A DNA stretch of 64,000 nt, from positions 38,532 through 102,531 of the forward strand of contig JABLXR010000005.1 in the NCBI GenBank assembly GCA_013178015.1. Reading direction: 5' to 3'. The number at the start of each line of letters is the position of its first letter. Within the stretch, counting starts at the first letter, position 1. Below, piece after piece: positions 7,167-41,804 of this stretch. The stretch is from Anaerolineae bacterium. Its GTDB lineage: Bacteria > Chloroflexota > Anaerolineae > DRVO01. Both the position numbers and the translations under genes were made by a program. Below the pieces are notes generated by a model that was given only the letters and a program-made list of their open reading frames with translations, was not told the DNA's origin and searched no databases.

Positions 7167-8438
7167 CTAGCGGCCGGCGCCATCATGTCGTAGGTCGCGG
7201 TGCAGGGTCTCAGGCACGGTCGCCAGAAGGGGCAGACGCACCGTCAGGTCAATGACGATGGGCAACAGGAATACCCACGCGGGATTCCAGTGCCGGTAGA
7301 TCAGGCCGCCGATGACGGGCGCCGGAATGGTAACCACGCCGCCCAGTACCCCCAGCACCCCGTGCCATCGGCCGGCCATCTCAGCCGGTACCAACTCCAG
7401 ACCCATGGCACCTGCGGCCCCCGACGAGATGCTGTAGAAGGTGTACAGCGCGGCTGCGCCTATGAGCATGTAGGCATCGTGCGCCAGGACCAGCAAGATG
7501 AAGGCGCCGTACCATAGCGGCGTGAGGGCATAGATAAGGCGCTTCCGGCCCAACCTATCGGCCAACCGTCCCAGGGGAATGCCGAAGGCCAGCCGGGTCA
7601 GGATCATGGCAGTCGTCATGGCCGCCAGGATCACGGCATTGGCCCCCTTGAACTCGTAGGCGTAGAGCTGCATGAAGGGAGTGGTGATCGCCAGCGGGAT
7701 GGACGTCAGCATGGCCACAGCGGTCCATCTCTTGAGCGGGCTACCGGTATCGAGGAGTTGCCGGAAGTCCGCCGCCACGTCCCTCAGCTTGATGCCGTGC
7801 AGCCCTCGGATGTGAGACGGCTCCTGCAGCCAGCGGAAGACCAGGTGGAAGACCATGAGGTAGCCTATCACCCGGATCCAGTACAGGGGCCGGATGCCCT
7901 CTGTCGTCAGCCCCCCGGAGTGGGCGACCAGGGCCGCCGCGATCATGGGCGCCACCAGGCTACTCAGACTGGCCAGGGTCACACAGGTGTTCTGGGCCGT
8001 GACCCTATCCCTGTTGGCGACAGAATCTCGGCAGATGACGCTGCATCCTGCGCTCAGGAATTGGGAGGCGGGGACCATGGCGATGCTTGCCAGGACGATC
8101 AGGTGCCAGGTGGGAGCCAACCCGTATAGGAGGGTGCCCACGGCCGTCAGCAGGACGCCCGACGCGTACAGCTTCCTGAGGCTGTACCGGTCCACCAACC
8201 AGCCGACAGGTAGCGAGAGCATCGCCCCGAAGGCAGAGGCTATGCTGCTGATGCTGCCAAGTTGCACCGGATTAGCCCCCAGCCCGGTGACGTAGATCGA
8301 GTCGTACTGGGCCGTCAGGTTCATGAGGAAGCTGCTCATGGCCTGACGACCCACCGCCACCCGGTAGTTGAGCTTCTGTCGGGCCATGAATCCCTTGGCG
8401 TTGGTCACCGCATCAGCTAGCGCCTTCATCTCTCCCAC
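7167..8438 (-). CDS. MFS transporter
   Basis: About 12 predicted TM helices and an MFS-like loop motif (GRLADRLGRKR). Confidence 0.85.
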   Translation of the reverse strand: MGEMKALADAVTNAKGFMARQKLNYRVAVGRQAMSSFLMNLTAQYDSIYVTGLGANPVQLGSISSIASAFGAMLSLPVGWLVDRYSLRKLYASGVLLTAVGTLLYGLAPTWHLIVLASIAMVPASQFLSAGCSVICRDSVANRDRVTAQNTCVTLASLSSLVAPMIAAALVAHSGGLTTEGIRPLYWIRVIGYLMVFHLVFRWLQEPSHIRGLHGIKLRDVAADFRQLLDTGSPLKRWTAVAMLTSIPLAITTPFMQLYAYEFKGANAVILAAMTTAMILTRLAFGIPLGRLADRLGRKRLIYALTPLWYGAFILLVLAHDAYMLIGAAALYTFYSISSGAAGAMGLELVPAEMAGRWHGVLGVLGGVVTIPAPVIGGLIYRHWNPAWVFLLPIVIDLTVRLPLLATVPETLHRDLRHDGAGR

Positions 8439-8522
8439 TCACAGCCGGATAGGCCGGCTACTGAACCCATCAGGCCAAAGGCTGCCTGAACGGCTACACT
8501 CCCTGAGCGGCGGAGTGTAGGC

Positions 8523-10166
8523 CTATGGCCAGGGCCTGAGGTAGAGCTCACGCACGTAGCGGTCCAGGAAATCAGCCTCCTCCGAGAGCTTGACATGGCC
8601 GATGCGGGGGGCGATCCGCTCAGCATCGGCTCTCCTCTCCCGAGAAAGCAGCATCTGTCTGGCCCCGGTCAGAGCGCCGTTGCCGATCTTGACCAGTTTC
8701 TCCTTCCTGGCCGGAAGAACGCCGATGGCCATGGCACTATCCAGGCTCACGTAGTTGCCGAACCCCCCCGCCAGATAGATCCTGTCAACCCCTTCCAGGT
8801 CGACCCCGTACTTGCGCATCAGGGTCTGCTGGTTGAGGGCGGAGCCCGCCTTGGCCAGCCTCAGCTCGTTTATGTCCTTCTGAGTGATGCCGATCCTGCG
8901 GCCGTTCTGGGAGATGACAAACTCATTAGCTGCCCTGTAGGCCTGGGCCAGCCTGCCGCTCCGATCGATAATTCCGTTCTTCAGCATCTCGGCCAGCAGG
9001 TCTATGAGACCTGACCCGCAGATGCCCACTGCGGGCTTGTCCCCAATGGTCTCATACCGGACCGCCCCATTCAGGATGCTGACGTTCTTGATGGCTCCTT
9101 CTATCGCGCCCGTGCCGCAGCTCACGGTAGCGCCCTCAAACGCGCCCCCGGCAGCGTTTGAGGCGGCCAGGATGCGCTCCCGGCTCCCAATGGCCACTTC
9201 GCCGTTGGTGCCGATATCTACCACCATGACGGGACGCTCCACTCGGTGTAGGCCGCTCGCCAGAATGACGGCTAGGCAGTCGGCCCCCACCTGGCCGGCC
9301 ACGAGAGGAGCGCCGTAGACGTTGGCTCTGGGGTTGATCTCCAAGCCGACTGCATCGGCATCCAGGTTGATGGGCGAAATGTCTTGAGGCTCATACGGGC
9401 TGGTACCCAGTGAGTGGACGCTCAGGCCGAAAAAGAGATTGCGCATGGTGGGGTTGCCCACTACCACGGCCTCGTAGATGTGATCCACTGTGCTCCGGCC
9501 CTCTCTTCCCTCGAAGGTGCGCAGAGCCGAGTTGACCGCCTCCACTACCACGCGCTGGAGCCGTCGGAGGCCATCCTCGTGAGTGTCGGCATAGCCGATC
9601 CGTGAGATGACATCGTCTCCGTAAGCCGCCTGGGGGTTCCTGCAGGCCAGGGTTGCCACTACCTCGCCGCTCTCCAAGTCCACGATCTGGGCTACCAGGG
9701 TAGTGGTCCCCACATCCACAGCTAGGCCGAGAAGCTCGCCTTCGTATGCTCCCAGGGAATGGATCCGCTCCTCGCGCAAGACGACCCGGTCCCCCTCCCT
9801 CGACACGTGGGGATCCAGGCGGATCATCCCCTGGTCCGTGCTCTCCGTGAGGATGGTGTACTCACCGGCCGCCCAGATGTAGACGACGACATCCCTAGCG
9901 CTTGATATGATCCTCGCCTGGCAGGCCAGCCGCTCGTCTCGCGCCAGGGGGAATCTGCGCTCGGCCTCTGTCCTCTCTGCCAGACTCTCGCCTCCGCTCT
10001 CCACCCTGACCACACACTTGCCGCACTGCCCTCGGCCGCCACAAGCGCTGGCTACCTGAATCCCCAGCCGCCAGGCGTGATCCCATAACGTCGCCCCTTC
10101 CTCAATCGAGACGCCGTTCCTGCCCCGGGCGTACTGGGGGAATATCACTCTGTGCTCGTGTGCCAT
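8523..10166 (-). CDS. 2Fe-2S ferredoxin / ASKHA (DUF4445) protein, RACo-like corrinoid reductive activase
   Basis: Plant-type ferredoxin Cys motif (CGGRGQCGKCVV...C) followed by a DUF4445 ATPase-like domain. Start at MAHEH, with GAGGAG 6 nt upstream. Confidence 0.75.
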   Translation of the reverse strand: MAHEHRVIFPQYARGRNGVSIEEGATLWDHAWRLGIQVASACGGRGQCGKCVVRVESGGESLAERTEAERRFPLARDERLACQARIISSARDVVVYIWAAGEYTILTESTDQGMIRLDPHVSREGDRVVLREERIHSLGAYEGELLGLAVDVGTTTLVAQIVDLESGEVVATLACRNPQAAYGDDVISRIGYADTHEDGLRRLQRVVVEAVNSALRTFEGREGRSTVDHIYEAVVVGNPTMRNLFFGLSVHSLGTSPYEPQDISPINLDADAVGLEINPRANVYGAPLVAGQVGADCLAVILASGLHRVERPVMVVDIGTNGEVAIGSRERILAASNAAGGAFEGATVSCGTGAIEGAIKNVSILNGAVRYETIGDKPAVGICGSGLIDLLAEMLKNGIIDRSGRLAQAYRAANEFVISQNGRRIGITQKDINELRLAKAGSALNQQTLMRKYGVDLEGVDRIYLAGGFGNYVSLDSAMAIGVLPARKEKLVKIGNGALTGARQMLLSRERRADAERIAPRIGHVKLSEEADFLDRYVRELYLRPWP

Positions 10167-17645: not shown

Positions 17646-17749
17646 GGCCACAGAGAAGCGGGTGACGTTCCTGAGTACGGGCATGACTCAATCCACTCAA
17701 AGGGGAGTTCCCTTGTTCCATCCTCTGTGTCTCGGTGTCTCTGTGGGCC
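17646..17749. repeat. Imperfect hairpin element of CACAGAGA-word type
   Basis: Arms GGGCCACAGAGAAG and CCTCTGTGTCTCGGTGTCTCTGTGGGCC sit in the divergent region between the GH5-like gene and the purH-like gene. The words match the arms flanking the GxxExxY gene. Confidence 0.55.
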
Positions 17750-27484: not shown

Positions 27485-27681
27485 GCAGCGGTGCCAGGTT
27501 CCACTTCCGGGATCGCAGCGCCTCCGGCAGGGCTGACCGAGCTGCTTTCTGTCCACCCTCACAGTAGCCGTGGTGGGGGAACGCAAGGCGGGATACTGTG
27601 GCAGATGCGTCGCAACTGATCGAGCGCCTTCAGCAACCGGAATCGGTACGTCAGCAGGCCCGGTGTCGAGGTACCGGTGGC

Positions 27682-29118
27682 ATGAGCGAGCTCTGGGCCG
27701 GGGCGGCGAAGGTGGATGTGACCGGCACCGCCAGCGGAGCGGCCAACGATCGCCTGTATGTCAGGGCGTTGGCGCTGAAGAACAGCGCCACTGCCGTGGT
27801 CATTGTCTCGCTCGATGCGGTCGCGATAGGAGAGATCGGACCGGTAGCCGACCACTACTTACCCGGGGTGCGTTCGCGTCTTCAGAAAGAACTGGGTATT
27901 GCCCCGACTCACGTGCTGGTCAGCGCCAGCCACTGCCATGGGATCGTGTGCGATGATGTTGAGGAGCGGACCATTCAGGCGATCAGGGAAGCGTGGCGGA
28001 ACCTGGAGCCCGTGCATGTTGGAGTTGGCGCTGGCCACGAGGACCGCATCCAGGAGAACCGGCGCTTTCGGTTGAGGAACGGCCGGGAAGCCGATGCCCG
28101 CCGAGCCTATGCCCTCCCTCCAGACGATGAAGTGATCGGCGTCGGCCCAATTGACCCCCAGATTGGCATTTTGCGGCTGGACCGAGCCACTGGACAGACA
28201 CTGGCGGTGGTCTACAACTTCGCCTGCCATCCGATACAGGGCGTCCCCAGCGAGGGTAACACCGCGGACCTGACGGGCTTCGCCTCTGCAGCAATCGAAA
28301 GGAGCCTAGGCGAGGGCGCCATTGCGCTCTTTCTGCAGGGCTGCGCTGGGGACGTGAACCCGGCTCTGTACAAGGGGGTGGACGCTCCTAAGAACGCCGA
28401 GGTGCTTGGCAGCCTGCTCGGGTTGAGTACACTGGCGGCCATCAGGCAGATACGGACCAGGCCCGGTGGCAGCATCGAGCTCATTAGCGAGATGGTCGAG
28501 CTTCCTACGGCCGACCTATCACCGCACATCGAGGCGCTTCGGGCGGAGCAGCTGCGGCTCCTGGGCTCCCTCGAAGGCACCAACCTCAACTTGAGAACGT
28601 TCGTCTATCTAATGACCAAGCATCGGCTGTTTCCTGATTTCCCCTCCTACTACTCGTATGGTTACCTTCATGAGGAGCAGATAGGGAGAGAGCACCTCAG
28701 GAGCCTTGATGCTGAGAACAGACGAGAAATGGAGAAGTACCTCCGCAACGTGCACGTCATGGAACAGCTGACCAGAGTGCAGACCAATCTGGCCCTGCTA
28801 GAGAAGCACCGGGGCCGGATTGCCGCGCTGAAGAAGGGCAGCATATCGGTGGAAGTGGCTGGCCTAAGGGTGGGGGAGTGGGTCCTGATTACCTTCCCGG
28901 GGGAGCTGTCGGTGCAGATTGGCCTCAATATCAAACGAGCGTCGCCTCATCGGTACACCTTCGTATCCGGTTGCACCAATGGCTACATCTACTATGCCCC
29001 AACCGCTGACCAACTCGCCAACAGGGGCGGCGCCCAGGAGGACAGCGACTGCGTGCTGGCGCCGGAGTGGCAGTCCCTCTTCGAGGGCAAGGCAGCGGAG
29101 ATTCTGAGCCGTCTCTAG
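27682..29118 (+). CDS. Neutral/alkaline ceramidase-like hydrolase
   Basis: Ceramidase_alk N-terminal pattern (GAAKVDVTG...VVIVSLDAVAIG...SASHCHG). Start at MSELW preferred; the ATG at 27598 is an alternative. Confidence 0.6.
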   Translation: MSELWAGAAKVDVTGTASGAANDRLYVRALALKNSATAVVIVSLDAVAIGEIGPVADHYLPGVRSRLQKELGIAPTHVLVSASHCHGIVCDDVEERTIQAIREAWRNLEPVHVGVGAGHEDRIQENRRFRLRNGREADARRAYALPPDDEVIGVGPIDPQIGILRLDRATGQTLAVVYNFACHPIQGVPSEGNTADLTGFASAAIERSLGEGAIALFLQGCAGDVNPALYKGVDAPKNAEVLGSLLGLSTLAAIRQIRTRPGGSIELISEMVELPTADLSPHIEALRAEQLRLLGSLEGTNLNLRTFVYLMTKHRLFPDFPSYYSYGYLHEEQIGREHLRSLDAENRREMEKYLRNVHVMEQLTRVQTNLALLEKHRGRIAALKKGSISVEVAGLRVGEWVLITFPGELSVQIGLNIKRASPHRYTFVSGCTNGYIYYAPTADQLANRGGAQEDSDCVLAPEWQSLFEGKAAEILSRL

Positions 29119-29182: not shown

Positions 29183-30643
29183 CTACCTCCTGACAAAGAA
29201 CCGCCCGAAGTTCGACACGTACGTGGGCAGGCGGCGCCAGGTGTCGGGGGAGGTGGCGCGCTGCCAGATCCGGCGGGGACGAAAGTAGAAGCGCCGGTAG
29301 GCCTCGTGGAACTTGCGCTCCACCAACCCCGCCGTCATGTCGCCCATCTCGAAGCGGGCGCGCTCACCGTGAATGGCCAGGTCGTGGTATCCGCTCGCCA
29401 GCAGCCGACCCTCCCGCTGCACCATCTCGTACAGCTCCGTCCCGGGCAACGGGTCGGCCATCATGAAGTTGGCCAGGTCCGGGTCCAGCTCTAGCGCCAG
29501 CCGAATGGTGTCCTCCATGGTCTCTTCGGTCTCTCCCGGTAGGCCGAAGATGAAGAAGCCCATGGTCTGAAGTCCGGCAGCCTTGGCGTTGGCGAAGGCA
29601 GCGCGCACGTCCTCGATCTTCTGTCGCTTCTTGATGGAGTCCAGGATGGCCTGGTTGCCGCTCTCCACCCCGAAGCCCACACGCTTGCAGCCAGCCCGCT
29701 TCATGAGGCGAAAGAGCTCGGCGTCAGTGTGGTCCGCTCGCATACCGTGGATGGTCACCCAGGGGACCGACGCCAGGCCCTCGTCAATGAGCAGATGGCA
29801 AATGCGCTTGGCCCGATCCAGGTCCAGATTCCAGACGTCGTCGGTGACCCCGATCTCGGTGGCCCGCATCTCCCGCACCAGATAGGCCCACTCTTCTACC
29901 ACCCTCTCCGGGGACCGAGCGCGCCAGGTGTTGCCGGTGATGGGCTTGGAGCAGTAGATGCACTGGTAGGGGCAGCCGCGCGAGGTGAGCAGGGTGTAGG
30001 CGCGGGCGTGCTTCTGCAGGCCGTCGGTGAGGGGCTGCAGGTTGGTGTAGCGTTCGATGGGGAAGAGGTGATAGGCGGGCCAGGGCAGGGCATCCACGTC
30101 CTGGCGCAGGGACCGTCCGGGGTTGTGCACCACCTTGCCCTGCTCGTCGCGGAACGAGACTCCGGCGATGCCACCCCAGACCTCCGCCCGAAAACGGCGT
30201 CCGCCCTCTCCCTCCAGGCCGCGGTCGCGTTGCAGGGCACGCATCACCTCGATGATGGTATCCTCGGCCTCGCCGCGCACCACCAGGTCCACCTGGGGCT
30301 TCTCCAGGGACTCGCCGGGATGCAGGGTGAGGTGTGGTCCGCCGAGTATGGTGATGGCGCCGGCGCGGTGGGCCACCTCGGCCGACTGCCAGGCTTCCTC
30401 GATCAGGGGGGTGGGGCTCGAGATGCCTACGACGTCGTAGGAGGCAGATGCCAGCCGGTCCGAGAGGGACCGGTCCTCCACCGACTCCTCGAAGATGTCC
30501 ACCCGGTAGCCGTGCTCAAGGAGGGACCCGGCCAGGTACCCCAGGCCCATGTGTATGTGCGCCCGCGAGTCCCACACGCGGGAGGTGGGGCTGACGAGGA
30601 GGATGTCACTGCCACAGAGGCACGGAGACACAGAGGAGCTCAT
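29183..30643 (-). CDS. B12-binding radical SAM protein (class B radical SAM)
   Basis: N-terminal cobalamin-binding domain and a CPYQCIYC radical SAM cluster motif. The first 11 codons are encoded by a repeat arm. The ATG overlaps the GxxExxY stop (ATGA). Confidence 0.85.
   Translation of the reverse strand: MSSSVSPCLCGSDILLVSPTSRVWDSRAHIHMGLGYLAGSLLEHGYRVDIFEESVEDRSLSDRLASASYDVVGISSPTPLIEEAWQSAEVAHRAGAITILGGPHLTLHPGESLEKPQVDLVVRGEAEDTIIEVMRALQRDRGLEGEGGRRFRAEVWGGIAGVSFRDEQGKVVHNPGRSLRQDVDALPWPAYHLFPIERYTNLQPLTDGLQKHARAYTLLTSRGCPYQCIYCSKPITGNTWRARSPERVVEEWAYLVREMRATEIGVTDDVWNLDLDRAKRICHLLIDEGLASVPWVTIHGMRADHTDAELFRLMKRAGCKRVGFGVESGNQAILDSIKKRQKIEDVRAAFANAKAAGLQTMGFFIFGLPGETEETMEDTIRLALELDPDLANFMMADPLPGTELYEMVQREGRLLASGYHDLAIHGERARFEMGDMTAGLVERKFHEAYRRFYFRPRRIWQRATSPDTWRRLPTYVSNFGRFFVRR
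30612..30638. repeat. Inverted-repeat arm CCACAGAGGCACGGAGACACAGAGGAG (left arm flanking the GxxExxY gene)
   Basis: Near-perfect reverse complement of 31016-31046. It lies inside the 5' coding end of the radical SAM gene. Confidence 0.7.
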
Positions 30644-31011
30644 AGGATGAGACGTTTCACTCCTTGCCTGAGGAGGCGGGTGTTGAGGTTGATGGGCAGG
30701 CCGGCTCTCTTGCCGGTCAGGCGCAGGTAGGTTAGCAGTTGCGCCTCGAAGACCGGATCGTGTCTCTCCACGCTCTCGATCTCCACGATCACGCTGTCGC
30801 CAACCAGCAGGTCGAGGCGGTAGTCACCGATGGGGTGACCATTGTAGACGAAGGGTACGGCCACCTGACGAGCGAACGGGACACGTCGCAGCTGCAGCTC
30901 CGGCGCCAAAGCCTCTTCGTGGGCCACTGCCAGAAGCCCCGGCCCCAAGTGGCGGTGGACCTCGATGGCTGCCTCTATGATCTGTTCGGTCAGCCCGTTG
31001 ATCTCGTCCAA
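30640..31011 (-). CDS. GxxExxY-family protein (PD-(D/E)XK-like), signature residues substituted
   Basis: Family pattern EQIIEAAIEVHRHLGPGLLAVAHEEAL...DYRLDLLVGDSVIVEIESV...AQLLTYLRLTGKRAGLPINLN. The GxxExxY positions read GLLAVAH. TTG start directly after the upstream stop. Confidence 0.7.
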   Translation of the reverse strand: MDEINGLTEQIIEAAIEVHRHLGPGLLAVAHEEALAPELQLRRVPFARQVAVPFVYNGHPIGDYRLDLLVGDSVIVEIESVERHDPVFEAQLLTYLRLTGKRAGLPINLNTRLLRQGVKRLIL

Positions 31012-32013
31012 TCAGCCTCTCTGTGCCTCTGTGCCTCTGTGGCTGGTCTCGACGGCCAGCGTTCGGCGTCGCTTGCGCAGCCACAGGAGCCCGCCGGGGA
31101 GGCTGCTGGTGTAGATGATGAGTTGCATGAGCAGCGAGACGGCGAGCGCTCCCGCGGGCGAGACTACCCCGCCCAGGCTGGAGTAGAGCAGATCGTAGGC
31201 CCCCTGATTGACCCCCAGCCCCCCCAGAGAGGGCACGATCAGAGGAGCGAAGGCGAGCATGGGGTTGAAGAGAAAGACGTATCGCAACGGTATCCCAGCC
31301 CCCACCGCCGTGGCCACCACCCAGTTGACCAGGTTGGAGGTGACGATGACCGCCAGGCCGATGCCGTAGGCCCGGGCCAGGGCGCCGGGATGATCGCGAT
31401 AGGTCTGCAGCGCCTCGGACAGGCGACCGTAGACCGGCTCCAGCCGGGATAGCAGAGGAAGCCGAAAGAGCTGCCCGATGAGCAGCCTGAGCCGGCGGCT
31501 GAAGAGCATCGCCAGGAAGCCGAGCGCTCCAGCGCAGGCAAGCCAGACCACTCCGGCCAGGGGCATCAGGTCGCTGCGACCCCAGCCAAACACGGCCACC
31601 GCCGACATGGCGGCGGCGCTGGTGATGAAGGCGGTGAGGCCCACCAGCCGGTCCACCAGGACGGATATGGCAGCGTCCTCGACGCGACTCAGGTGTCGGG
31701 CCAGGTCATACCCTCGCACCAGGTCGCCCCCTACGTTGGTGGGGAGGAAGTTGCCGAAGAAGAGCCCGGTGAAGGTGAAGGCCAGCAGGTCCGGGTAGGG
31801 CAAGGTCGCGCCCTGGGCCCGCAGGAGCAGGCTCCACTTGGCGGTGTTGAGGGCGATGGCGCCAAAGTACACCGCCAGGGCGGCGACCAGCAGAGGCACC
31901 GAGGCCCCGCCGAGGGTCGCGGCGACGGCATCCAGGTCCACCCGCCAGAGCAAGTAGGCGATCAGCGCCAGGCTAACCGCGATCTTCACCAGGTCTACGG
32001 CCCTCAGCCGCAT
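31012..32013 (-). CDS. Lysylphosphatidylglycerol-synthase-TM-region / flippase-like membrane protein (UPF0104)
   Basis: Start MRLRAVDLVKIAVSLALIAYLLWRVD, then about 8 TM helices. LPG_synthase_TM-like motif GNFLPTNVGGDLVRG. Confidence 0.7.
   Translation of the reverse strand: MRLRAVDLVKIAVSLALIAYLLWRVDLDAVAATLGGASVPLLVAALAVYFGAIALNTAKWSLLLRAQGATLPYPDLLAFTFTGLFFGNFLPTNVGGDLVRGYDLARHLSRVEDAAISVLVDRLVGLTAFITSAAAMSAVAVFGWGRSDLMPLAGVVWLACAGALGFLAMLFSRRLRLLIGQLFRLPLLSRLEPVYGRLSEALQTYRDHPGALARAYGIGLAVIVTSNLVNWVVATAVGAGIPLRYVFLFNPMLAFAPLIVPSLGGLGVNQGAYDLLYSSLGGVVSPAGALAVSLLMQLIIYTSSLPGGLLWLRKRRRTLAVETSHRGTEAQRG
31016..31046. repeat. Inverted-repeat arm CCTCTCTGTGCCTCTGTGCCTCTGTGGCTGG (right arm)
   Basis: Reverse complement of 30612-30638. 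It encodes the last codons (SHRGTEAQRG) of the flippase-like gene. Confidence 0.7.
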
Positions 32014-32065
32014 CGGCGCTCCCTGGAGACTATCCGGCAGGCGGTCGGGCAGCGAAGATTGAGGT

Positions 32066-33043
32066 TCATCGCCGGCTCTGAGGCGCCGCCTGCCCCTCCG
32101 GCGACGGTTCGGGTAGGGCGGCTCTCCGCTTGGAAGGCACCGACCGGGCCCCCACGTCCCCCTTCTGGCTCCAGGCCATGTCCCAGACGACATGGGTGCG
32201 CCGGCGCACGTAGTAGTCGTAGCCGCCTAACACGCGCGACAGCGCCTCCACCATGGCGAGGACCGCCAGGGCATATAGCAGCCACAACGCCGACTTGACC
32301 TCGCGCCAGGCCACCTTCAGCACCAACCGATTGTCCAGGCTGGCCACCTTGTGGCCGTACTTGTCCCTGAGGTAAAGGTGGCCAGCGTAGTTGCGCCGCC
32401 TCTGGCGCACAAAGTCGGTGAACGATTCTGGCCCCAGGTTGTACACCACCGCATCGGGGGCGTAGACCACCTTCAGTCCGCGCTTGATGACCAGGCTCTC
32501 CACAAAGGCCTCGTCCATGGCCACGTCGGGCGGTATGGCGTCGAAGACCTTGCGGAAGGCGATGAGCTCACCCAACCGGGGGATCTCCAGGCACAGGTTG
32601 TGCTCCATGGCCAGGCGCAGGTGGGTGAGGAAGCCCACGATGTGCTCCGGGGTGTTGACGGGCACCTTGTGCGCCCCGGTCATGCCTACCGTGGGGTCTC
32701 GAAACATTCCGATCAGGCTCTCGAAGGTGTCGGGGCCGGGCAGGGTATCCCCGCTCTCCACCGCGCAGATGTCCTCGGTGGCATGCTTGAGGAACACGTT
32801 GACGGCCGAGGTCTTGCCCTCGCGCCTTTCTTGGGTGTAGAGCTCTATGCGAGGGTCCCGGGCCATGAACTCCCGCACGATCTCCTCGGTGCGGTCGGTG
32901 CAGGCACTGGCGACCACTACGATCTGGCTAATCGCGACGGTGCTGAGCTGCTGATCCAACAGGGCCTGGAGGAGCCGGCCGATGTTGGCTTCTTCGTTGT
33001 AGGCGGTGATGCCGACGCTGCAACGGATGATCTGGTCAGTCAT
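32066..33043 (-). CDS. Glycosyltransferase family 2
   Basis: GT-A motifs (SVGITAYNEE; DxD-like ESGDT), with a TM region near the C-terminus. Confidence 0.8.
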   Translation of the reverse strand: MTDQIIRCSVGITAYNEEANIGRLLQALLDQQLSTVAISQIVVVASACTDRTEEIVREFMARDPRIELYTQERREGKTSAVNVFLKHATEDICAVESGDTLPGPDTFESLIGMFRDPTVGMTGAHKVPVNTPEHIVGFLTHLRLAMEHNLCLEIPRLGELIAFRKVFDAIPPDVAMDEAFVESLVIKRGLKVVYAPDAVVYNLGPESFTDFVRQRRRNYAGHLYLRDKYGHKVASLDNRLVLKVAWREVKSALWLLYALAVLAMVEALSRVLGGYDYYVRRRTHVVWDMAWSQKGDVGARSVPSKRRAALPEPSPEGQAAPQSRR

Positions 33044-33057
33044 GCCCCTCACCCAGA

Positions 33058-33082
33058 GCCACAGAGACACGAAGACACGGAG
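33058..33082. repeat. Solo arm-like copy CCACAGAGACACGAAGACACGGAGG
   Basis: Same word family as 30612-30638. It sits just upstream of the GT2 start. I found no partner arm. Confidence 0.35.
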
Positions 33083-33086
33083 GTAC

Positions 33087-33322
33087 TCACCGGCGTTCCC
33101 TCTGGCTGGCGTTCAGCACGGTCACGCCCACCACTTCCCCTTCCTGGTAGCGTATGATGATTCATCATCGGTGAGCTCGGAATCGTCGGCGTGGCTCGGC
33201 TTGCGGAAGTTGATGTAGAGAACGTCTGCCTCCTCATCGTACGTCACCCAGATTCGCTTGTGCGAAACCCCAAGCAGTCCAGGAACGAGAGCCAACACCC
33301 TATCCAACTCTACTGTGGCCAC
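33087..33322 (-). pseudogene. DUF2283-family (antitoxin-like) gene with an apparent 1-nt deletion frameshift
   Basis: Frame 0 gives ...IWVTYDEEADVLYINF...SELTDDE, then stops early. The -1 frame continues IIIRYQEGEVVGVTVLNASQRERR, matching the DUF2283 C-terminal consensus (IILDYDKEG.IIGIEILDAS). The shift lies in an AA run inside the palindrome GATGATGAATCATCATC. Confidence 0.5.
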
Positions 33323-33618
33323 AGCTTCACCCTCCTCTCCAACCGTGCTCTTCGTCGGGTAAGGAAGGCAGTGATGACGAAGCCGTCACTGGCACTCAGC
33401 TCTCGATACACCACCAGATACTTGCCCGGGTCTACTTCTCTTACCGCCAGGCACTCACCTGCGCTACCCTGATAGACCGCCTCGGCTCCTACCACCGCCT
33501 CCAGGACCTCGAAGTAGTAGCCGGCCAATTCGGAGTGTTGCTCAGTGATATGAAACCACCTGTCCTGAGAGAGCCGAATGGGTACACCCTTTCTGGAACT
33601 GACCGTTTCCGAGCTCAT
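33310..33618 (-). CDS. DUF4258-like (toxin-like) small protein
   Basis: 103 aa (IRLSQDRWFHITEQHSE...YLVVYRELSASDGFVITAFLTRR). It overlaps the DUF2283 start and abuts the stop of the second radical SAM gene. Confidence 0.5.
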   Translation of the reverse strand: MSSETVSSRKGVPIRLSQDRWFHITEQHSELAGYYFEVLEAVVGAEAVYQGSAGECLAVREVDPGKYLVVYRELSASDGFVITAFLTRRRARLERRVKLWPQ

Positions 33619-35018
33619 CACCCGAACGCCGTCCGCCAGGCCACCCGCACGGTGCGGGGCAGGTCGCGGTAGGTGCTCCAGCGGGTGAGCTGCCGGAGGA
33701 TGCGGGCGGGGCGCCAGTAGAAGCGGCGATAGGCTTCCTTCCACTTGCGCTCCACCAACTCCGCCGGCAGCCCCGGCATCTCGAAGGCCGCCTTGCCCTC
33801 GAAGAAGGCGTAGTCGTCATAGTCCTTCACCAGGATGCGGCCACCTTGCCTCACCTGCTGGTACATTCGGGTGCCCGGGAAGGGGGTGGCCATGGAGAAG
33901 TTGGCCACTAACGGATCCAGCTCGCAGGCGAAGCGTATGGTGTCGTCTATGGTCTCTTCCGTCTCACCCGGGAGCCCCACTATGAAGAAGCCGATGGTCT
34001 CCATCTTGGCCGCCCGAGCAGCGGCGAAGGCGTGACGGACCTGCTCCAGGGTGAGCTTCTTGCCGATGACATCATCGAGGATGCGCTGATTGCCGCTCTC
34101 CACCCCGAAGGCGGTGCGAACGCAGCCGGCCTGGCGCATCCGCGTCAGCAACTCTTCGTCCACCAGATTGGCCCGGATGCCGTTGATCATGATCCAGGGC
34201 ACGTGGTTGAGCCCCTCCTGGATCAGCCGGTCGCATATGGCCAGCACACGCCTGCGGTCTATGTTGAAGGAATCGTCCAGGACGCCGATCTCCTTCGCCC
34301 CCAGGTCCCGCACCAGCCAGCGCCACTCGGCCACCACGCTTTCGGGGGAGCGAGCCCGCCACAAGCGAGGCCCCGTCTGGCAGCAATAAGAGCAGCTGTA
34401 AGGGCAGCCACGAGAGGTGAGGATAGGGTAGCTGGGGACCCGAGGCGCGTCTATGGTGGGTTGCAGGTTGGTGTAGCGGTCCATCCGGAAATGGTGGTAG
34501 GCCGGGAAGGGCAACCCATCCAGGTCCTTGATGGGCGGGCGCTCACGGTGGTGCCGGACTTGCCCTTCGAGGCGGTGGCTTATCCCGGCTATGCCCTCGA
34601 CGGCAGCCGGCCATTCCTCTCGAACGCGCCCCTCGAGCGCGGCGCACAGCTCCGTCCAGGTGTCCTCACCCTCGCCGCGCACCACGAAGTCCACTCCCGG
34701 TTGGGCCAGGCTCTCCTCCGGAAGCACGCTCGGATGCGGCCCTCCCAGGACGACAGGAGCAGAGGTCAACTCCCGCACCAGAGCTGCGTCCCGCCAGGCC
34801 GACTTGACCTGGATGCTGTTGGCGCTGATGCCTACGATGTCCGGGCCAAACTGGCGCAGGATCTCGGCCAGGCTCTGCCGCTCCACGTTCCCATCGTACA
34901 CGCGCACCTGGTCACCTCGCCTCTCGGACACCGCGGCCAGGTAGGCCAGGCCCAACGGGGGCGAGGTGCGAGTCTCTATGGGCAGATGGACGCGAGGGGC
35001 AACGAGAAGGACTCTCAC
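33618..35018 (-). CDS. B12-binding radical SAM protein, paralog of 29183-30643
   Basis: Cluster motif CPYSCSYC. Same domain order as the first copy, with about 50 % identity by eye. GTG start (VRVLLVAPRV). Confidence 0.85.
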   Translation of the reverse strand: MRVLLVAPRVHLPIETRTSPPLGLAYLAAVSERRGDQVRVYDGNVERQSLAEILRQFGPDIVGISANSIQVKSAWRDAALVRELTSAPVVLGGPHPSVLPEESLAQPGVDFVVRGEGEDTWTELCAALEGRVREEWPAAVEGIAGISHRLEGQVRHHRERPPIKDLDGLPFPAYHHFRMDRYTNLQPTIDAPRVPSYPILTSRGCPYSCSYCCQTGPRLWRARSPESVVAEWRWLVRDLGAKEIGVLDDSFNIDRRRVLAICDRLIQEGLNHVPWIMINGIRANLVDEELLTRMRQAGCVRTAFGVESGNQRILDDVIGKKLTLEQVRHAFAAARAAKMETIGFFIVGLPGETEETIDDTIRFACELDPLVANFSMATPFPGTRMYQQVRQGGRILVKDYDDYAFFEGKAAFEMPGLPAELVERKWKEAYRRFYWRPARILRQLTRWSTYRDLPRTVRVAWRTAFG

Positions 35019-38217: not shown

Positions 38218-39447
38218 ATGGCGGAACTGAGGGTCTGTCTCGCGACTGACTGCTATCAGCCCGGAATTGGAGGGATCGAGAACCACGTCCGCAGCCTGGC
38301 CCAGGGTCTGGCCGAAGCTGGGCACCAGGTGGACGTGGTCACTCACCGGGCGCCCTCGGTCGGACACACGGCCTGCGTCGCTCCAGCAGACGGTGGCGAT
38401 GGCTTCCGGGTTCTGCGCCTGGAAGGGGCAGTCGTGTCGTATGGGGGCGCCGACCCCATGGTGGACCCCCGGGTGTTCGGGCGCGTTTACCGCCTTCTGC
38501 AGGGCAGCGGTTACGACATTGTCCACGGCCACTCCTTCGAATCGCTACTGGTGCTGGGGGCCCTGCGGGCGGCCACCCGGCTGGGCATTCCCACGCTGCT
38601 CACTAAGCACTCTATGACCGCGCGGGCTAACCGCCCCGCCCTCTTCAACCGGCTGGCGGTAGCGGCCGAGAAACGGGTGGCGGCACGATGGACGCTGGGG
38701 CTCATCGTGCTCAGCGCTGCTGGTGTCAGAGAGATGGCCGGAGCGGGAGTCCCCATTCACCTGGTTCACGGAGGGGTGGACGCCCAGCGCTGGCGGCCCA
38801 ACCGCGAACTTCGGGTCCGGACCCGGGAGCGGCTGGGATACCGGCCGGAGGAACTGGTGATCGGCTACCTAGGTCGCCTGGTCTCTTCTAAAGGCGTGCT
38901 CAGCCTGATAGAGGCGGTCGCCCCGCTGATGCAGACGGCGAATCACCTGCGGCTTCTCTTGGCAGGAGACGGCCCCCTTCTTCCTGAGCTCAGGCGGCGG
39001 TTGCGCAGCCTGGGTCTGGAGGGGAGGACACTGATGATCGGCGCCGTGCCCTGGGCCGAGACGCCCGCCTACTTGAATGCCATGGACGTGTTTGCCTTCC
39101 CCAGCTACACTGAGGCGTTCGGACTGGCACTGCTCGAGGCTATGGCCTGCGGCCTCCCGACAGTGGCCCGAGAAAGCGCCGGCACCGAGGAGCTCGTGCA
39201 AGACGAGCGCACCGGATTCCTAGTGCGGACGGATCTGGAGCTACGCCAACGGCTAGAGAGACTGATCCAGGACGCAGAGCTGCGTCGCCGAATAGGGCGA
39301 GAGGGGCGTGCCCTGGCCGAGTCCCGGTTCAGCTGGGCGGGCATGGCCTCGACGACGGCCGCCATCTACCAGGAGACCATGCAGCAGGCTCTAGCCCGGC
39401 GGTCCCCTTCCGCTATGGGAAGCGAGCGGGTGAGCCTGCCCAAGTGA
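38218..39447 (+). CDS. Glycosyltransferase family 4 (PIG-A/MshA/BshA-like retaining GT-B)
   Basis: N-terminal GT4 motif (CLATDCYQPGIGGIENHV) and a C-terminal EAFGLALLEAMACGLP EX7E motif. Confidence 0.85.
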   Translation: MAELRVCLATDCYQPGIGGIENHVRSLAQGLAEAGHQVDVVTHRAPSVGHTACVAPADGGDGFRVLRLEGAVVSYGGADPMVDPRVFGRVYRLLQGSGYDIVHGHSFESLLVLGALRAATRLGIPTLLTKHSMTARANRPALFNRLAVAAEKRVAARWTLGLIVLSAAGVREMAGAGVPIHLVHGGVDAQRWRPNRELRVRTRERLGYRPEELVIGYLGRLVSSKGVLSLIEAVAPLMQTANHLRLLLAGDGPLLPELRRRLRSLGLEGRTLMIGAVPWAETPAYLNAMDVFAFPSYTEAFGLALLEAMACGLPTVARESAGTEELVQDERTGFLVRTDLELRQRLERLIQDAELRRRIGREGRALAESRFSWAGMASTTAAIYQETMQQALARRSPSAMGSERVSLPK

Positions 39448-39457
39448 AGGACCCCCT

Positions 39458-40987
39458 GTGTTCCGGCGACATTCAGGAGCAAGCCTATCGGTGAGCCTAC
39501 GGCGGCTGCGCGCCCTTGATTCGGGAGCCGGCAACTCCATCGGCAGCGAGAGGGAGAGCGGCCGGCGACGATGGGGGACCATTGGGCGCGTCCTGCTCCT
39601 TCTGGCCATCCTTTCAATCGTCCTGGTCAGCGCCAACCTGTACGTGGGACGCCTCGCGGCCCTGCCCGCTCCCTTCATTGACGACCTGGCGAACGCCGAG
39701 AACATCATGAGGTTGCTGGTGATCTCGCCTCACCCGGACGACGAGGTGATCGCGGCCGGCGGGCTGATGCAGCAGGTACTCCAGCGAGGGGGCGAGGTGC
39801 GCGTGGTCATCGTCACCAGCGGCGATGGCTCCCTGACCGGAACCATGGTCGAGTTCCGCCGCCCTCCCCGGTCAACCGACTACATTCAGTCCGGGCTCAA
39901 CCGGCAGCAGGAATCGCTCCGCGCCTTGGCTACCCTGGGTGTGGCGCCCGGTATGGTGGAGTTCCTCGGCTACCCGGACCGGGGCATTCAGGCTCTCTGG
40001 TGGAACTACTGGGAGGACACTGACCCTTACCGCTCGCCCTTCACCCGACTGGCTCACAGCCCCTATCCCCTCACCTACAATCCGTCCTCGGTCTACTCGG
40101 GGCAGTCTCTGCTGGCCGACCTGCGGACCATCCTGAGTCAGTTCCAACCGGACACGGTTGTAGCGCCCCATTTTGAGGATAGCCACCCGGACCATTGGGC
40201 TACGGGCGCGTTTGCCGCCCTCGCCCTGGCCATGGAGCGCCCGGATCCGATGCCCCGGCTGCTTCTGTACCTGGTTCATCGGGGAGACTTCCCCACGCCC
40301 AGGGGCTACCTCCCCTTCGCTCCGCTCTTGCCTCCCCTCAGGCTGGTTAACGACGGAGTCTACTGGCAGAAGCTGACCTTGACCGACGAGCTGGTCAGGG
40401 TCAAGGGCGAGGCCATGGAACAGCACCGCAGCCAGCTGCCCCTGCTGGGCGCGTTCCTTCGCTCCTTCGTGCGCCAGAACGAGCTATTCTGCGAACTGAA
40501 CTACGCCGGCGCTCTGATGCTGGTGGAAGACCAGCCGGTGACACCAGTGGTCACCGACTGGGTCTTGGCGGACGAGGCCGAACTGCGGCCGGTTCTGTGG
40601 GACTCGGTGGGGGACACTCTCACCCAGGAGTTAGGCCCGGGCACCGATTTCGTCGCCCTCTACGTGGCCACCACGGCCGAGGAGGTATGGATAGCAGCCG
40701 AGCTCAGAGGGGGCTCCAGCCCCCTGGTCGAGTACCGGGCTTTCGTGCGCGCTGCCGATGGCGAGAACGCGTCCCGCGCTCGCGTGCTCTACCCCGTCCG
40801 GCTCATGCCTCGGCCCCGAGATCAGGCCCGCGGTCGTTTCCTGCTGGCCCGGTTCCGGCTGGACGAGCTGAGTAACCCGCACACGGTAGTGGTCAGCTTC
40901 GAGGCTGCCTATCCGCGCGGGCGCGTCGTTGACCGCATCGGCTGGATAGCGGTGAGCCTGGAGGACCAGGCTGTCCCTGCCTTCTGA
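39458..40987 (+). CDS. PIG-L/LmbE-family N-acetylglucosaminyl deacetylase, membrane-anchored, with an extended C-terminal region
   Basis: N-terminal TM (VLLLLAILSIVLVSANL) and a PIG-L motif (LLVISPHPDDEVIAAGG). A second His motif (HFEDSHPDHWA). About 250 extra C-terminal residues of unknown function. Confidence 0.75.
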   Translation: MFRRHSGASLSVSLRRLRALDSGAGNSIGSERESGRRRWGTIGRVLLLLAILSIVLVSANLYVGRLAALPAPFIDDLANAENIMRLLVISPHPDDEVIAAGGLMQQVLQRGGEVRVVIVTSGDGSLTGTMVEFRRPPRSTDYIQSGLNRQQESLRALATLGVAPGMVEFLGYPDRGIQALWWNYWEDTDPYRSPFTRLAHSPYPLTYNPSSVYSGQSLLADLRTILSQFQPDTVVAPHFEDSHPDHWATGAFAALALAMERPDPMPRLLLYLVHRGDFPTPRGYLPFAPLLPPLRLVNDGVYWQKLTLTDELVRVKGEAMEQHRSQLPLLGAFLRSFVRQNELFCELNYAGALMLVEDQPVTPVVTDWVLADEAELRPVLWDSVGDTLTQELGPGTDFVALYVATTAEEVWIAAELRGGSSPLVEYRAFVRAADGENASRARVLYPVRLMPRPRDQARGRFLLARFRLDELSNPHTVVVSFEAAYPRGRVVDRIGWIAVSLEDQAVPAF

Positions 40988-41018
40988 TCCGGCTCGGAGA
41001 CGGGCCGCCGTCGTCCGC

Positions 41019-41804
41019 GTGCGTCCCTATCGCCCCAGCGACCGGGAGGCTGTGCGCTGCCTTTACGCCGACACCGCTTTCTTCGGGGAACCGGTAGAGG
41101 CTTACTTCGACGACCGCAAGCTCTTCGCCGACCTGGGTGTGAGCCTCTACCTGGATCACTACCCCGACTACGCCTTCGTGGCCAGGCAGGTTACAGGGGA
41201 TAGGTTACAGGTGACAGGGGACAGGTTACAGGGAGTGGCCCACGGGACCGAGAGAGGCCCGTCCTCACCCTGTCCCCTATCCCCTGTCCCCTGTAACCTA
41301 TCCCCTGTCACCTGTAACCTATCCGGGTACATTGTGGGGAGCCCGCACGGGGATGCCGACGTGCATCGGCACCTGATGGCGCACCTTCCTGCTATCGTGG
41401 GAAGGCTGGTGCGGGGACGCTACCGCCTGGGCCGCAAGACCATGCTCTACTACCTGGACAACGCCCTGGCCTGGCTGCGAGGGCAGCTGCTGGAGATCCG
41501 CGACCCCGCCTATCCCGCCAACCTGCACATCAACGTCGCCTCGTCTCACCGAGGGCAGGGCCTGGGATGGGAACTGTTGTCCGCTTACCTGGAGCACCTG
41601 CAACGCTGCGGGGTGCCGGGGGTGCACGCGGTCACCACGGATCACAGTCGAGGTGCCGTCAGGCTCTTCCAGAAGGCTGGCTTTCGGCTCTTGGAAGAGA
41701 AGAGCACCTCGGTGTGGCGCCGGCACCTGGGCCGGCAGGTGAGGCTGCTTGGGTTCGGCCTGCGGCTGGATCAGGACGGGCCACCGCCGAGGCGGCCATC
41801 CTAG
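41019..41804 (+). CDS. GNAT-family N-acetyltransferase carrying an in-frame 45-codon repeat insertion
   Basis: GNAT motifs (HINVASSHRGQGLGWELL; FQKAGF). The insertion QVTGDRLQVTGDRLQ...PVTCNLSG sits between beta strands. Confidence 0.7.
   Translation: MRPYRPSDREAVRCLYADTAFFGEPVEAYFDDRKLFADLGVSLYLDHYPDYAFVARQVTGDRLQVTGDRLQGVAHGTERGPSSPCPLSPVPCNLSPVTCNLSGYIVGSPHGDADVHRHLMAHLPAIVGRLVRGRYRLGRKTMLYYLDNALAWLRGQLLEIRDPAYPANLHINVASSHRGQGLGWELLSAYLEHLQRCGVPGVHAVTTDHSRGAVRLFQKAGFRLLEEKSTSVWRRHLGRQVRLLGFGLRLDQDGPPPRRPS
41189..41325. repeat. Intragenic imperfect palindromic element of GTTACAGG/GACAGGG-word type
   Basis: Left arm GGTTACAGGGGATAGGTTACAGGTGACAGGGGACAGGTTACAGGGAG. Right arm CCCTGTCCCCTATCCCCTGTCCCCTGTAACCTATCCCCTGTCACCTGTAACC. 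The GNAT reading frame is preserved through it. Confidence 0.6.

Follow-up and report, generated by a model that had tools for sequence, protein, structure and literature searches.

What is the function of a bacterial locus in which two paralogous B12-binding radical S-adenosylmethionine (SAM) genes enclose a glycosyltransferase, a flippase-like membrane protein, and several small genes? The locus lies in a 64-kb stretch of DNA (hereafter the window; GC content ~66%) from an Anaerolineae metagenome-assembled genome (MAG). Exact protein matches tie it to the NCBI locus tags HPY83_ of this MAG and also to a Logan assembly of SRR6186653. Between 29183, the stop of the second radical SAM gene (rSAM_B), and 35018, the start of the first (rSAM_A), the window carries seven open reading frames (ORFs), all on the minus strand: rSAM_A, a 102-aa toxin-like gene, a DUF2283 gene, a family 2 glycosyltransferase gene (GT2), a UPF0104 membrane protein gene, a GxxExxY gene, and rSAM_B. 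An earlier note, made from the sequence without database searches, took these genes for an envelope glycolipid or polymer modification locus that had accreted mobile add-ons. Our analysis suggests, with moderate confidence, that the core genes form an operon, conserved in the Anaerolineae, whose product is a membrane-anchored glycoconjugate; one paralog has been added to it, and two selfish cassettes have inserted into it. The note had also described every junction as overlapping or abutting. The single strand holds throughout and four junctions conform, but gaps of 78 nt and 52 nt separate DUF2283 from GT2 and GT2 from UPF0104, respectively.

The first line of evidence for this reading is gene order, compared across ~170 related loci (labeled L002, L082, and so on). 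One set comprises 80 species-representative Chloroflexota genomes fetched with a profile of the two radical SAM types, A and B; another comprises 80 metagenome loci retrieved by a GT2 profile, from which the denominators 60, 44, and 37 are drawn. In 57 of 60 metagenome loci a co-directional UPF0104 gene starts no more than 300 nt after GT2 (gaps of -43 to +265 nt), and the two genes are adjacent in every genome locus that carries GT2, itself a protein ~65–70% identical across the Anaerolineae. An A-type radical SAM gene is present within 2 kb upstream of GT2 in ~45% of the metagenome loci (20/44). The radical SAM gene at this position is always of the A type and always co-directional, 6 of the 20 gaps measure 3–6 nt, and the orthologs directly upstream of GT2 are 63–84% identical to rSAM_A. 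The triad of rSAM_A, GT2, and UPF0104 is present in L082–L084; in L082, rSAM_A ends at 7999 and GT2 starts at 8001, one base apart. L085 keeps the triad with an insertion between rSAM_A and GT2, and L086 has GT2–UPF0104 only. A B-type gene lies downstream in 4 of 37 metagenome loci, A and B types never exchange positions in these loci, and in the MAGs that hold L082 and L085 the B genes are on separate contigs (L022 and L021).

These counts identify GT2–UPF0104 as the stable unit. rSAM_A is its frequent, tightly coupled first gene, and rSAM_B has joined it only in the clade to which the window belongs: within the 80-genome set, the full order rSAM_A–GT2–UPF0104–(GxxExxY)–rSAM_B is confined to L002, L003, L005, and L039, with partial versions in L004 and L045. 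Downstream of the triad, rSAM_B was found only in L002–L005, L039, L045, and ~6 metagenome loci. The four-gene order without the insertion is kept down to 64–66% protein identity (L039). The synteny search for rSAM–GT2–UPF0104 triads is thus positive, the triad being a tight, widely conserved Anaerolineae operon. The earlier picture of two paralogs bracketing a cassette is correct as a description of the arrangement but not as a functional unit, since that arrangement is lineage-specific, rSAM_B is mostly unlinked, and the tightest pair is GT2–UPF0104.

The other two parts of the locus, the PBECR2-like/DUF2283 pair and the GxxExxY cassette, are insertions. For both there are empty sites in relatives, and the inserted genes have a lower GC content at third codon positions (0.67–0.68 in the toxin-like pair, with 0.67 in the 102-aa gene, and 0.78 in the GxxExxY gene, against 0.84–0.88 in the four core genes), which bears out the proposal of accreted mobile add-ons. 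The GxxExxY gene encodes a full-length member of its family (TIGR04256, 115.7 bits, cut-off 35; PF13366, 111.4 bits). It is flanked by two inverted arms of 42 nt each, 83% complementary, and these account for the repeat arms that the note had mentioned. The cassette has the order (CACAGAGG)x3, GxxExxY gene, (CCTCTGTG)x3 at the UPF0104/rSAM_B junction of the window, L002, and L003. No cassette would fit at the empty sites of L005 and L094, where the matches to UPF0104 and rSAM_B run into each other, and none is present in the short gap of L039. The left arm is kept in L002 and L003 and absent from L005 and L039. Both arms contribute to the flanking proteins: the left arm encodes the last ~9 UPF0104 codons (HRGTEAQRG), and the right arm supplies the rSAM_B start codon and its first 12–13 residues, the N-terminus of rSAM_B reading MSSSVSPCLCGSD in the window versus MIRILLVSP at an empty site. 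Around the GxxExxY ORF the arms close a predicted 40-bp RNA stem (z = -4.0). The arm motif has nine matches at six places in the window, where 0.69 are expected by chance, and one match with three mismatches falls inside the UPF0104 gene. Solo copies of this octamer-repeat arm also stand in intergenic DNA without a GxxExxY gene at two places in the window (Table 1), and the one upstream of GT2 is found at the same place in L003.

The arms are not peculiar to the Anaerolineae. GxxExxY genes from four other phyla, taken from plasmid or chromid records, are all four bracketed by inverted arms of 16–30 nt. In Sphingomonas (fabD/fabG), Bacteroides (radA/FAD-protein gene), and Bernardetia (ade/manC-like gene) the gene is wedged tightly, and co-directionally, between two neighbors; for Treponema, the fetched 400-base flank shows an annotation for the downstream neighbor only. 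The Bacteroides arm, TTCACCACAGAGGACGCAGAGGACACGGAG, has the CACAGAGG unit in common with the Anaerolineae arms, and the Bernardetia arm has the CACAGAG core in common with them. The GxxExxY gene with its arms looks like an undescribed selfish cassette or, alternatively, like an ORF carried in an RNA stem, as in 23S rRNA intervening sequences. The literature on the family is almost empty and yielded no described function, and PADLOC matched neither this gene nor the toxin-like pair to a known defense system.

The 102-aa protein encoded directly after rSAM_A has no Pfam match of its own, even at E <= 10. PF18810 (PBECR2) is the match of 21 of its 23 homologs, and DUF4258 that of a single one, weakly (E = 0.022); we therefore reject the DUF4258 label given in the earlier note and call the protein PBECR2-type. 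The DUF2283 assignment of its partner stands (PF10049, 27.3 bits, cut-off 23, over the N-terminal half of the profile only), but this gene is frameshifted near 33160 (window 33140–33170): the conserved C-terminus IIIRYQEGEVVGVTVLNASQRERR lies in another frame and ends at 33087, and in tblastn searches with the intact L093 and L002 copies the match is split between frame -1 and frame -3. The frameshift reflects either a real pseudogene or an assembly error. The order 102-aa gene, then DUF2283, with a 13-nt overlap, is found also in L179, from a bacterium with an Omp85 outer-membrane protein, and in L180, from a Methanophagaceae archaeon. By this pattern, small overlapping genes that recur in unrelated genomes, the pair classifies as a putative type II toxin–antitoxin-like module.

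The operon junctions, above all that between rSAM_A and GT2, are a recurrent landing place for small passengers. The window and L093 carry the 102-aa gene and DUF2283 there, L002 and L092 a DUF2283 remnant only, and L003 a solo repeat arm only; L039 and L082 have almost no spacer, and the 102-aa gene is absent from L003, L039, and L082. In L085 the same junction holds a DUF4062-FGE gene and DUF2283, both identified by Pfam. Inspection by eye of this junction in other lineages suggested a Phd-like remnant, a DUF433/PIN-like pair, an MNT/HEPN pair, and a GNAT gene and, at the UPF0104/rSAM_B junction of L004, a RelE/ParE-type toxin–antitoxin-like pair instead of the GxxExxY cassette.

What chemistry the core might perform depends first on its radical SAM proteins. 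Both contain the two expected domains above the Pfam cut-offs (PF02310, 81.5 bits in rSAM_A and 60.8 bits in rSAM_B, cut-off 32.1; PF04055, 83.5 and 89.8 bits, cut-off 29.5) and a CxxxCxxC motif, SRGCPYSCSYC (CPYSCSYC) in rSAM_A and CPYQCIYC in rSAM_B. With 49% identity across 467 residues (E = 7e-126), the two are clearly paralogous, as the note had recognized. By domain content the two proteins are class B radical SAM enzymes, for which cobalamin use is predicted; some radical SAM enzymes with a B12-binding domain, such as AprD4, have been reported not to use B12. The NCBI protein NPV06874.1 has the same length as rSAM_A, 466 aa. The top NCBIfam match of both proteins, nearly full length, is HpnJ (TIGR03471, equivalog cut-off 577.6; 203.0 bits for rSAM_A and 200.5 bits for rSAM_B), and their identity to Mycetohabitans HpnJ is 32% and 29%, respectively. 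The BchE model (TIGR02026, cut-off 481.35) gives 197.9 and 182.7 bits. Neither protein reaches the cut-off of any NCBIfam equivalog. Their best solved relatives are AprD4 and the methyl-coenzyme M reductase (MCR) glutamine C-methyltransferase 9ccb, structures identified via PMC12931638 and PMC11796369.

In a neighbor-joining tree that included HpnJ and BchE genes from megaplasmids as references, the A and B types form two sister clades, each with 100% bootstrap support. Each clade contains Anaerolineae together with Caldilineae/Amarolinea-type members, which indicates that the A/B duplication is older than those classes. HpnJ groups not with A and B but with radical SAM enzymes encoded in Lawsonia and Azospirillum glycan loci, and BchE is separate; the name BchE, attached automatically at the Joint Genome Institute (JGI), is rejected on this separate branch and on the scores. 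The phylogenetic placement proposed in the earlier note thus puts the paralogs with no characterized enzyme, HpnJ and BchE included, and, judged by sequence, neither belongs to a characterized family.

Orthologs of rSAM_B, 56–88% identical, occur in the 80 Chloroflexota genomes. Most Anaerolineae have a lone B ortholog (64–71% identity) beside trmH, cysS, radA, clpC, or an HD phosphohydrolase gene. In ~17 Caldilineae, Ardenticatenia, and Amarolinea-type loci, an A-like and a B-like gene stand in tandem with further radical SAM genes alongside. Because A and B are sister clades and adjacent in these ~17 loci, they probably share a pathway. Directly upstream of the unlinked rSAM_B, on the same strand, many Anaerolineae conserve a membrane protein of ~490 aa (L007; likewise L014, L018, L019, L022, L024, L026, and L030), which has no Pfam or NCBIfam match. 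The HD-domain phosphohydrolase gene follows rSAM_B in L037 and ~15 other loci (among them L036, L039, L040, L042–L046, and L056); its match to the PRK10119 model is weak (126.6 bits, cut-off 286), and it is present in L039, which has the four-gene order, and absent from the window. Several Chloroflexota have co-directional operons in which the radical SAM genes number as many as seven, exemplified by "Ca. Amarolinea aalborgensis" (L080) and present also in L074, L079, L081, L065, and L071; beside the A-like and B-like genes stand three others of B12 type and two of SPASM/twitch type. In related loci an IscA/ErpA gene and a gene for an FHA-PD40 protein are found as well. These operons contain no glycosyltransferase gene and match no known family, and we saw no obvious precursor peptide. 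Upstream of the L080 operon lies an RtcB RNA ligase-like gene with an intein-like insert (CLAGDS ... HNFVANGFVVSNC), recognized by eye.

GT2 has a GT-A fold and a single hydrophobic segment, residues 249–273, predicted to be a C-terminal membrane helix; the long C-terminal helix is predicted to span residues 238–278. The motifs ESGDT, MDEAFVE, and QRRRNxAGH are invariant. Among solved structures, the membrane mannosyltransferase PcManGT comes closest to it (6yv7; E = 2.3e-15 by sequence, TM 0.58 by fold). The UPF0104 protein has ~7 hydrophobic segments and covers positions 2–301 of the 302-position profile PF03706 (127.8 bits, cut-off 33.4, E = 7.7e-37); it also matches TIGR00374, "flippase-like domain" (62 bits, cut-off 43.2). 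The families that the note had named for GT2, UPF0104, and GxxExxY are all borne out by these Pfam and NCBIfam matches.

From the domain families, and by analogy with known operons, we infer a lipid acceptor, a sugar, a radical reaction, and flipping. On the cytoplasmic side of the membrane, the single-pass GT2 would transfer a sugar from a nucleotide sugar to a lipid acceptor; rSAM_A would then carry out radical chemistry on the lipid-linked head group, and UPF0104, a homolog of the MprF flippase domain, would deliver the product to the outer leaflet. In this clade rSAM_B would probably take part in the same head-group tailoring as rSAM_A. Candidate radical reactions are C-methylation and an HpnJ/Cds-type ring contraction to a carbocycle. 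This make–modify–flip model draws on the precedents of gpgSDF/hexSDF, PplT, AglD, the hpn genes, and HpnJ/Cds, which are compared with the locus below. A more specific version is speculative and in our view quite unlikely: here the A/B pair would act on the GT2-installed sugar to give an ordinary, non-hopanoid bacterial membrane lipid a head group that is either C-methylated or carbocyclic (cyclitol- or calditol-like). If true, the product would be an undescribed lipid class and a possible acid-stable biomarker for Anaerolineae in sediments and digesters.

Several observations weigh against the make–modify–flip model. No rSAM_A is present in the 2–7 kb upstream of GT2 in ~55% of loci, rSAM_B is unlinked in most Anaerolineae, and the tandem A–B loci have neither GT2 nor UPF0104 within 10 kb. 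The genes that adjoin the lone rSAM_B (trmH, cysS, radA, and clpC) are housekeeping genes and give no functional clue. Plasmid-borne class B relatives at ~30% identity lie in glycan loci in Lawsonia, Azospirillum, and Solidesulfovibrio and in a cluster for a ribosomally made, post-translationally modified peptide (RiPP) in Clostridium, contexts so mixed that sequence alone is silent on the substrate; we abandoned guilt by association with these enzymes as uninformative. UPF0104 matched no solved structure by sequence or profile, and in BLASTP comparisons GT2 and UPF0104 are not orthologs of HpnI (E = 0.98) or of the protein at the HpnL position (E = 0.002 over 47 residues). Some of these findings are what one would expect if GT2–UPF0104 were a self-contained glycolipid module and A and B belonged to another pathway, acting on a lipid tail, a cofactor, or a peptide, and had been recruited beside it in some lineages. 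About half of the loci indeed have GT2–UPF0104 without a nearby radical SAM gene, B is usually elsewhere, and in the Amarolinea and Caldilineae-type loci A and B keep company with up to five more radical SAM genes and IscA/ErpA, and with no glycosyltransferase. However, the order of A then GT2 is strictly specific in orientation and type, is often translationally coupled, and has outlasted repeated insertions at the junction in many lineages, which is not expected of chance neighbors. We thus consider unrelated neighbors improbable.

Two further alternatives concern the product. By the first, the product of GT2 is a polyprenyl-phosphate sugar, on which the radical SAM enzyme may also act; UPF0104 flips it, and GT-C enzymes on the outer side of the membrane take it as a donor for glycosylating a protein or wall polymer, so that the end product is not a membrane glycolipid. 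AglD of Haloferax volcanii, a GT2–UPF0104 fusion in S-layer glycosylation (PMC5898192), is the model for such a route. Dolichyl-phosphate mannose synthase (DPMS) is a weak relative of GT2 in sequence and fold, a GT87 gene lies divergently beside rSAM_A in L085, and a PMT_2 gene and a small GT2 gene are found 5 kb upstream in L082–L084. The match to DPMS is nevertheless marginal (E = 1e-3) beside that to PcManGT (E = 2e-15), and GT2 has the motif set of a cellulose-synthase-like branch (PF13632; MDEAF, QRRRN), which to our knowledge is not expected in the DPMS/GtrB branch. Moreover, a GT-C gene is not a conserved neighbor of the triad, and in the window we saw none nearby. This route therefore seems unlikely to us. 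That the locus encodes a processive exopolysaccharide synthase of the PgaC/IcaA type is very improbable, even though PgaC_IcaA (TIGR03937) is the best NCBIfam hit of GT2 and many GT2 orthologs bear the JGI name "biofilm PGA synthesis N-glycosyltransferase PgaC." The hit covers the N-terminal GT-A half only, at 60.6 bits against a cut-off of 422.3; one predicted membrane helix is too few for a channel; and no PgaA-, PgaB-, or PgaD-like partner is present. On these grounds we reject a PgaC-type polymer synthase. Since GT2 is so far below the PgaC cut-off and is without a channel-forming membrane domain, we read it as an enzyme that adds a single sugar at the membrane.

The features of the locus and of the related loci are collected in Table 1. 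Scans of the whole window yielded no tRNA and no Rfam match, and hence no B12 riboswitch; no sigma-70-like promoter was found, and terminator-like sites occur at chance level and inside genes. Convergent with rSAM_B, a 506-aa protein with a neutral ceramidase match below the Pfam cut-off (29.7 versus 32.1 bits) is encoded by the last gene of a sugar ABC-transporter operon that includes a URO-D family gene. Consecutive genes on the opposite strand, 3–6 kb upstream of rSAM_A, encode a GT4 glycosyltransferase, a de-N-acetylase of the PIG-L family (509 aa), and a GNAT acetyltransferase; they could be another set, one for making an aminosugar lipid or thiol. The PIG-L gene lies 4.4 kb upstream. We left this row out of the system because it is not kept beside the triad in L002, the closest relative with long flanks.

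Table 1. Coordinates of features in the window and in related loci
Feature	Locus	Position	Strand	Length	Remarks
rSAM_A, class B radical SAM with B12-binding domain	window	35018..33618	-	466 aa	first gene of triad; PF02310 + PF04055
PBECR2-type (BECR-fold nuclease) toxin-like gene	window	33618..33310	-	102 aa	insertion; family via homologs
DUF2283 gene, frameshifted	window	33322..33122 (ORF as called; C-terminus in another frame ends at 33087)	-	66 aa	PF10049
Solo octamer-repeat arm, just upstream of GT2	window	33058..33089			direct repeat D10, inverted repeat I3
Solo octamer-repeat arm, intergenic	window	17720–17745			
GT2 glycosyltransferase	window	33043..32066	-	325 aa	PF00535, PF13641, PF13632
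UPF0104 / LPG_synthase_TM (MprF flippase-domain family) membrane protein	window	32013..31012	-	333 aa	PF03706, TIGR00374
Left inverted arm of GxxExxY cassette	window	31002..31043		42 nt	(CACAGAGG)x3 on coding strand; inverted repeat I1
GxxExxY / PDDEXK_3 nuclease-superfamily gene	window	31011..30640	-	123 aa	insertion; TIGR04256, PF13366
Right inverted arm of GxxExxY cassette	window	30611..30652		42 nt	pairs with left arm; overlaps rSAM_B start
rSAM_B, class B radical SAM	window	30643..29183	-	486 aa	old rSAM_A paralog; PF02310 + PF04055
GxxExxY cassette	window	30611–31043			
GxxExxY cassette	L175	374–810			
GxxExxY cassette	L176	343–814			
GxxExxY cassette	L177	360–810			
GxxExxY cassette	L178	331–791			
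Passenger genes at operon junctions	L099	3642–5229			
Passenger genes at operon junctions	L112	552–1492			
Passenger genes at operon junctions	L110	3414–4286			
Passenger genes at operon junctions	L141	363–939			
Passenger genes at operon junctions	L005	1532–1860			
Passenger genes at operon junctions	L094	735–1065			
Passenger genes at operon junctions	L085	6577–8017			
Passenger genes at operon junctions	L004	3199–3827			
rSAM_A / GT2 / UPF0104	L082–L084	6518–7999 / 8001–8936 / 8933–9913			
Ceramidase-like gene	window	27598–29118	+	506 aa	convergent with rSAM_B
GT4, PIG-L family, and GNAT genes	window	38218–41804	+		
Multigene radical SAM operon	L080	4152–14607			
RtcB RNA ligase-like gene	L080	388–3560			
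Membrane protein upstream of rSAM_B	L007	2500–3990		~490 aa	
HD-domain phosphohydrolase gene	L037	8762–9412			

Anaerolineae are among the most abundant uncultured bacteria of sediments, the subsurface, and anaerobic digesters. In a limited literature search we found no study of Anaerolineae glycolipids or polar lipids, and no description of a radical SAM–GT2–flippase triad in Chloroflexi. A glycosyltransferase and a predicted flippase combined with a Chloroflexota-specific branch of B12 radical SAM enzymes offer a concrete target for new head-group chemistry; the operon is a well-defined candidate for such chemistry without being conceptually surprising. It would also bring to three the cases of radical SAM enzymes that tailor lipid-linked sugars, joining HpnJ and Cds as a bacterial, non-hopanoid example. 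In addition, the locus is a natural experiment on selfish cassettes collecting at operon junctions.

Among characterized systems, the hpnI–hpnJ–hpnK–hpnL genes tailor the hopanoid side chain into bacteriohopanetetrol cyclitol ether. As read in Mycetohabitans pBRH01, they form an operon of co-directional genes whose products include a GT2 glycosyltransferase, a class B radical SAM enzyme, and a UPF0104 protein, like the locus described here. In contrast to that operon, our locus starts with the radical SAM gene, an HpnK-type (YdjC-type) deacetylase gene is missing from the interval 29183–35018, and the 64-kb window showed no hopanoid genes. The NCBIfam hits of the locus proteins include no model for HpnI or HpnL, and we reject orthology to hpnIJKL on the NCBIfam cut-offs, the BLASTP comparison with the actual hpnI-J-K-L locus, and the neighbor-joining tree. 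Calditol synthase (Cds) of Sulfolobus acidocaldarius is proposed to turn a lipid-linked hexose into a five-membered carbocycle and is thus a precedent for radical head-group tailoring; for both HpnJ and Cds, ring contraction of a lipid-linked sugar was assigned from knockout phenotypes (PMC13459092). Cds is archaeal and acts on glycerol dialkyl glycerol tetraether (GDGT) lipids, and its likeness to A and B is by analogy of mechanism only.

The other precedents concern GT2 and UPF0104. PcManGT of Pyrobaculum calidifontis (345 residues) is 26% identical to GT2, but the alignment covers mainly the GT-A domain, and in place of PcManGT's C-terminal region the window protein ends in one long helix. 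UPF0104 domains are fused to glycosyltransferases, with GT-A and GT-B domains, in the MprF and PplT proteins (bioRxiv 10.1101/2022.03.11.483950). AglD and the GT–PplT fusions resemble the locus in treating GT2 and UPF0104 as a unit, here as adjacent genes that often overlap at stop and start; AglD differs as a single polypeptide that works with dolichyl phosphate in S-layer N-glycosylation and has no radical SAM partner described. In gpgSDF and hexSDF, a UPF0104 (COG0392) predicted flippase accompanies a lipid glycosyltransferase and a head-group tailoring enzyme (PMC12713373). These operons, for glucosaminyl-phosphatidylglycerol (GlcN-phosphatidylglycerol) in Pseudomonas aeruginosa and an aminohexosyl glycolipid in Clostridioides difficile, have the same synthase–tailoring–flippase logic as ours, with co-directional glycosyltransferase and UPF0104 genes. 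However, GpgS is a GT4 rather than a GT2 enzyme, the tailoring position is taken by a deacetylase there and by a class B radical SAM enzyme here, and the flippase activity in those systems is only predicted. Membership in these systems fails on their defining features, because the HpnJ cut-off is not reached, HpnI and HpnL orthologs are missing, and the operon has no deacetylase. Nevertheless, hpnIJKL and the synthase–tailoring–flippase operons share their design with this Anaerolineae locus.

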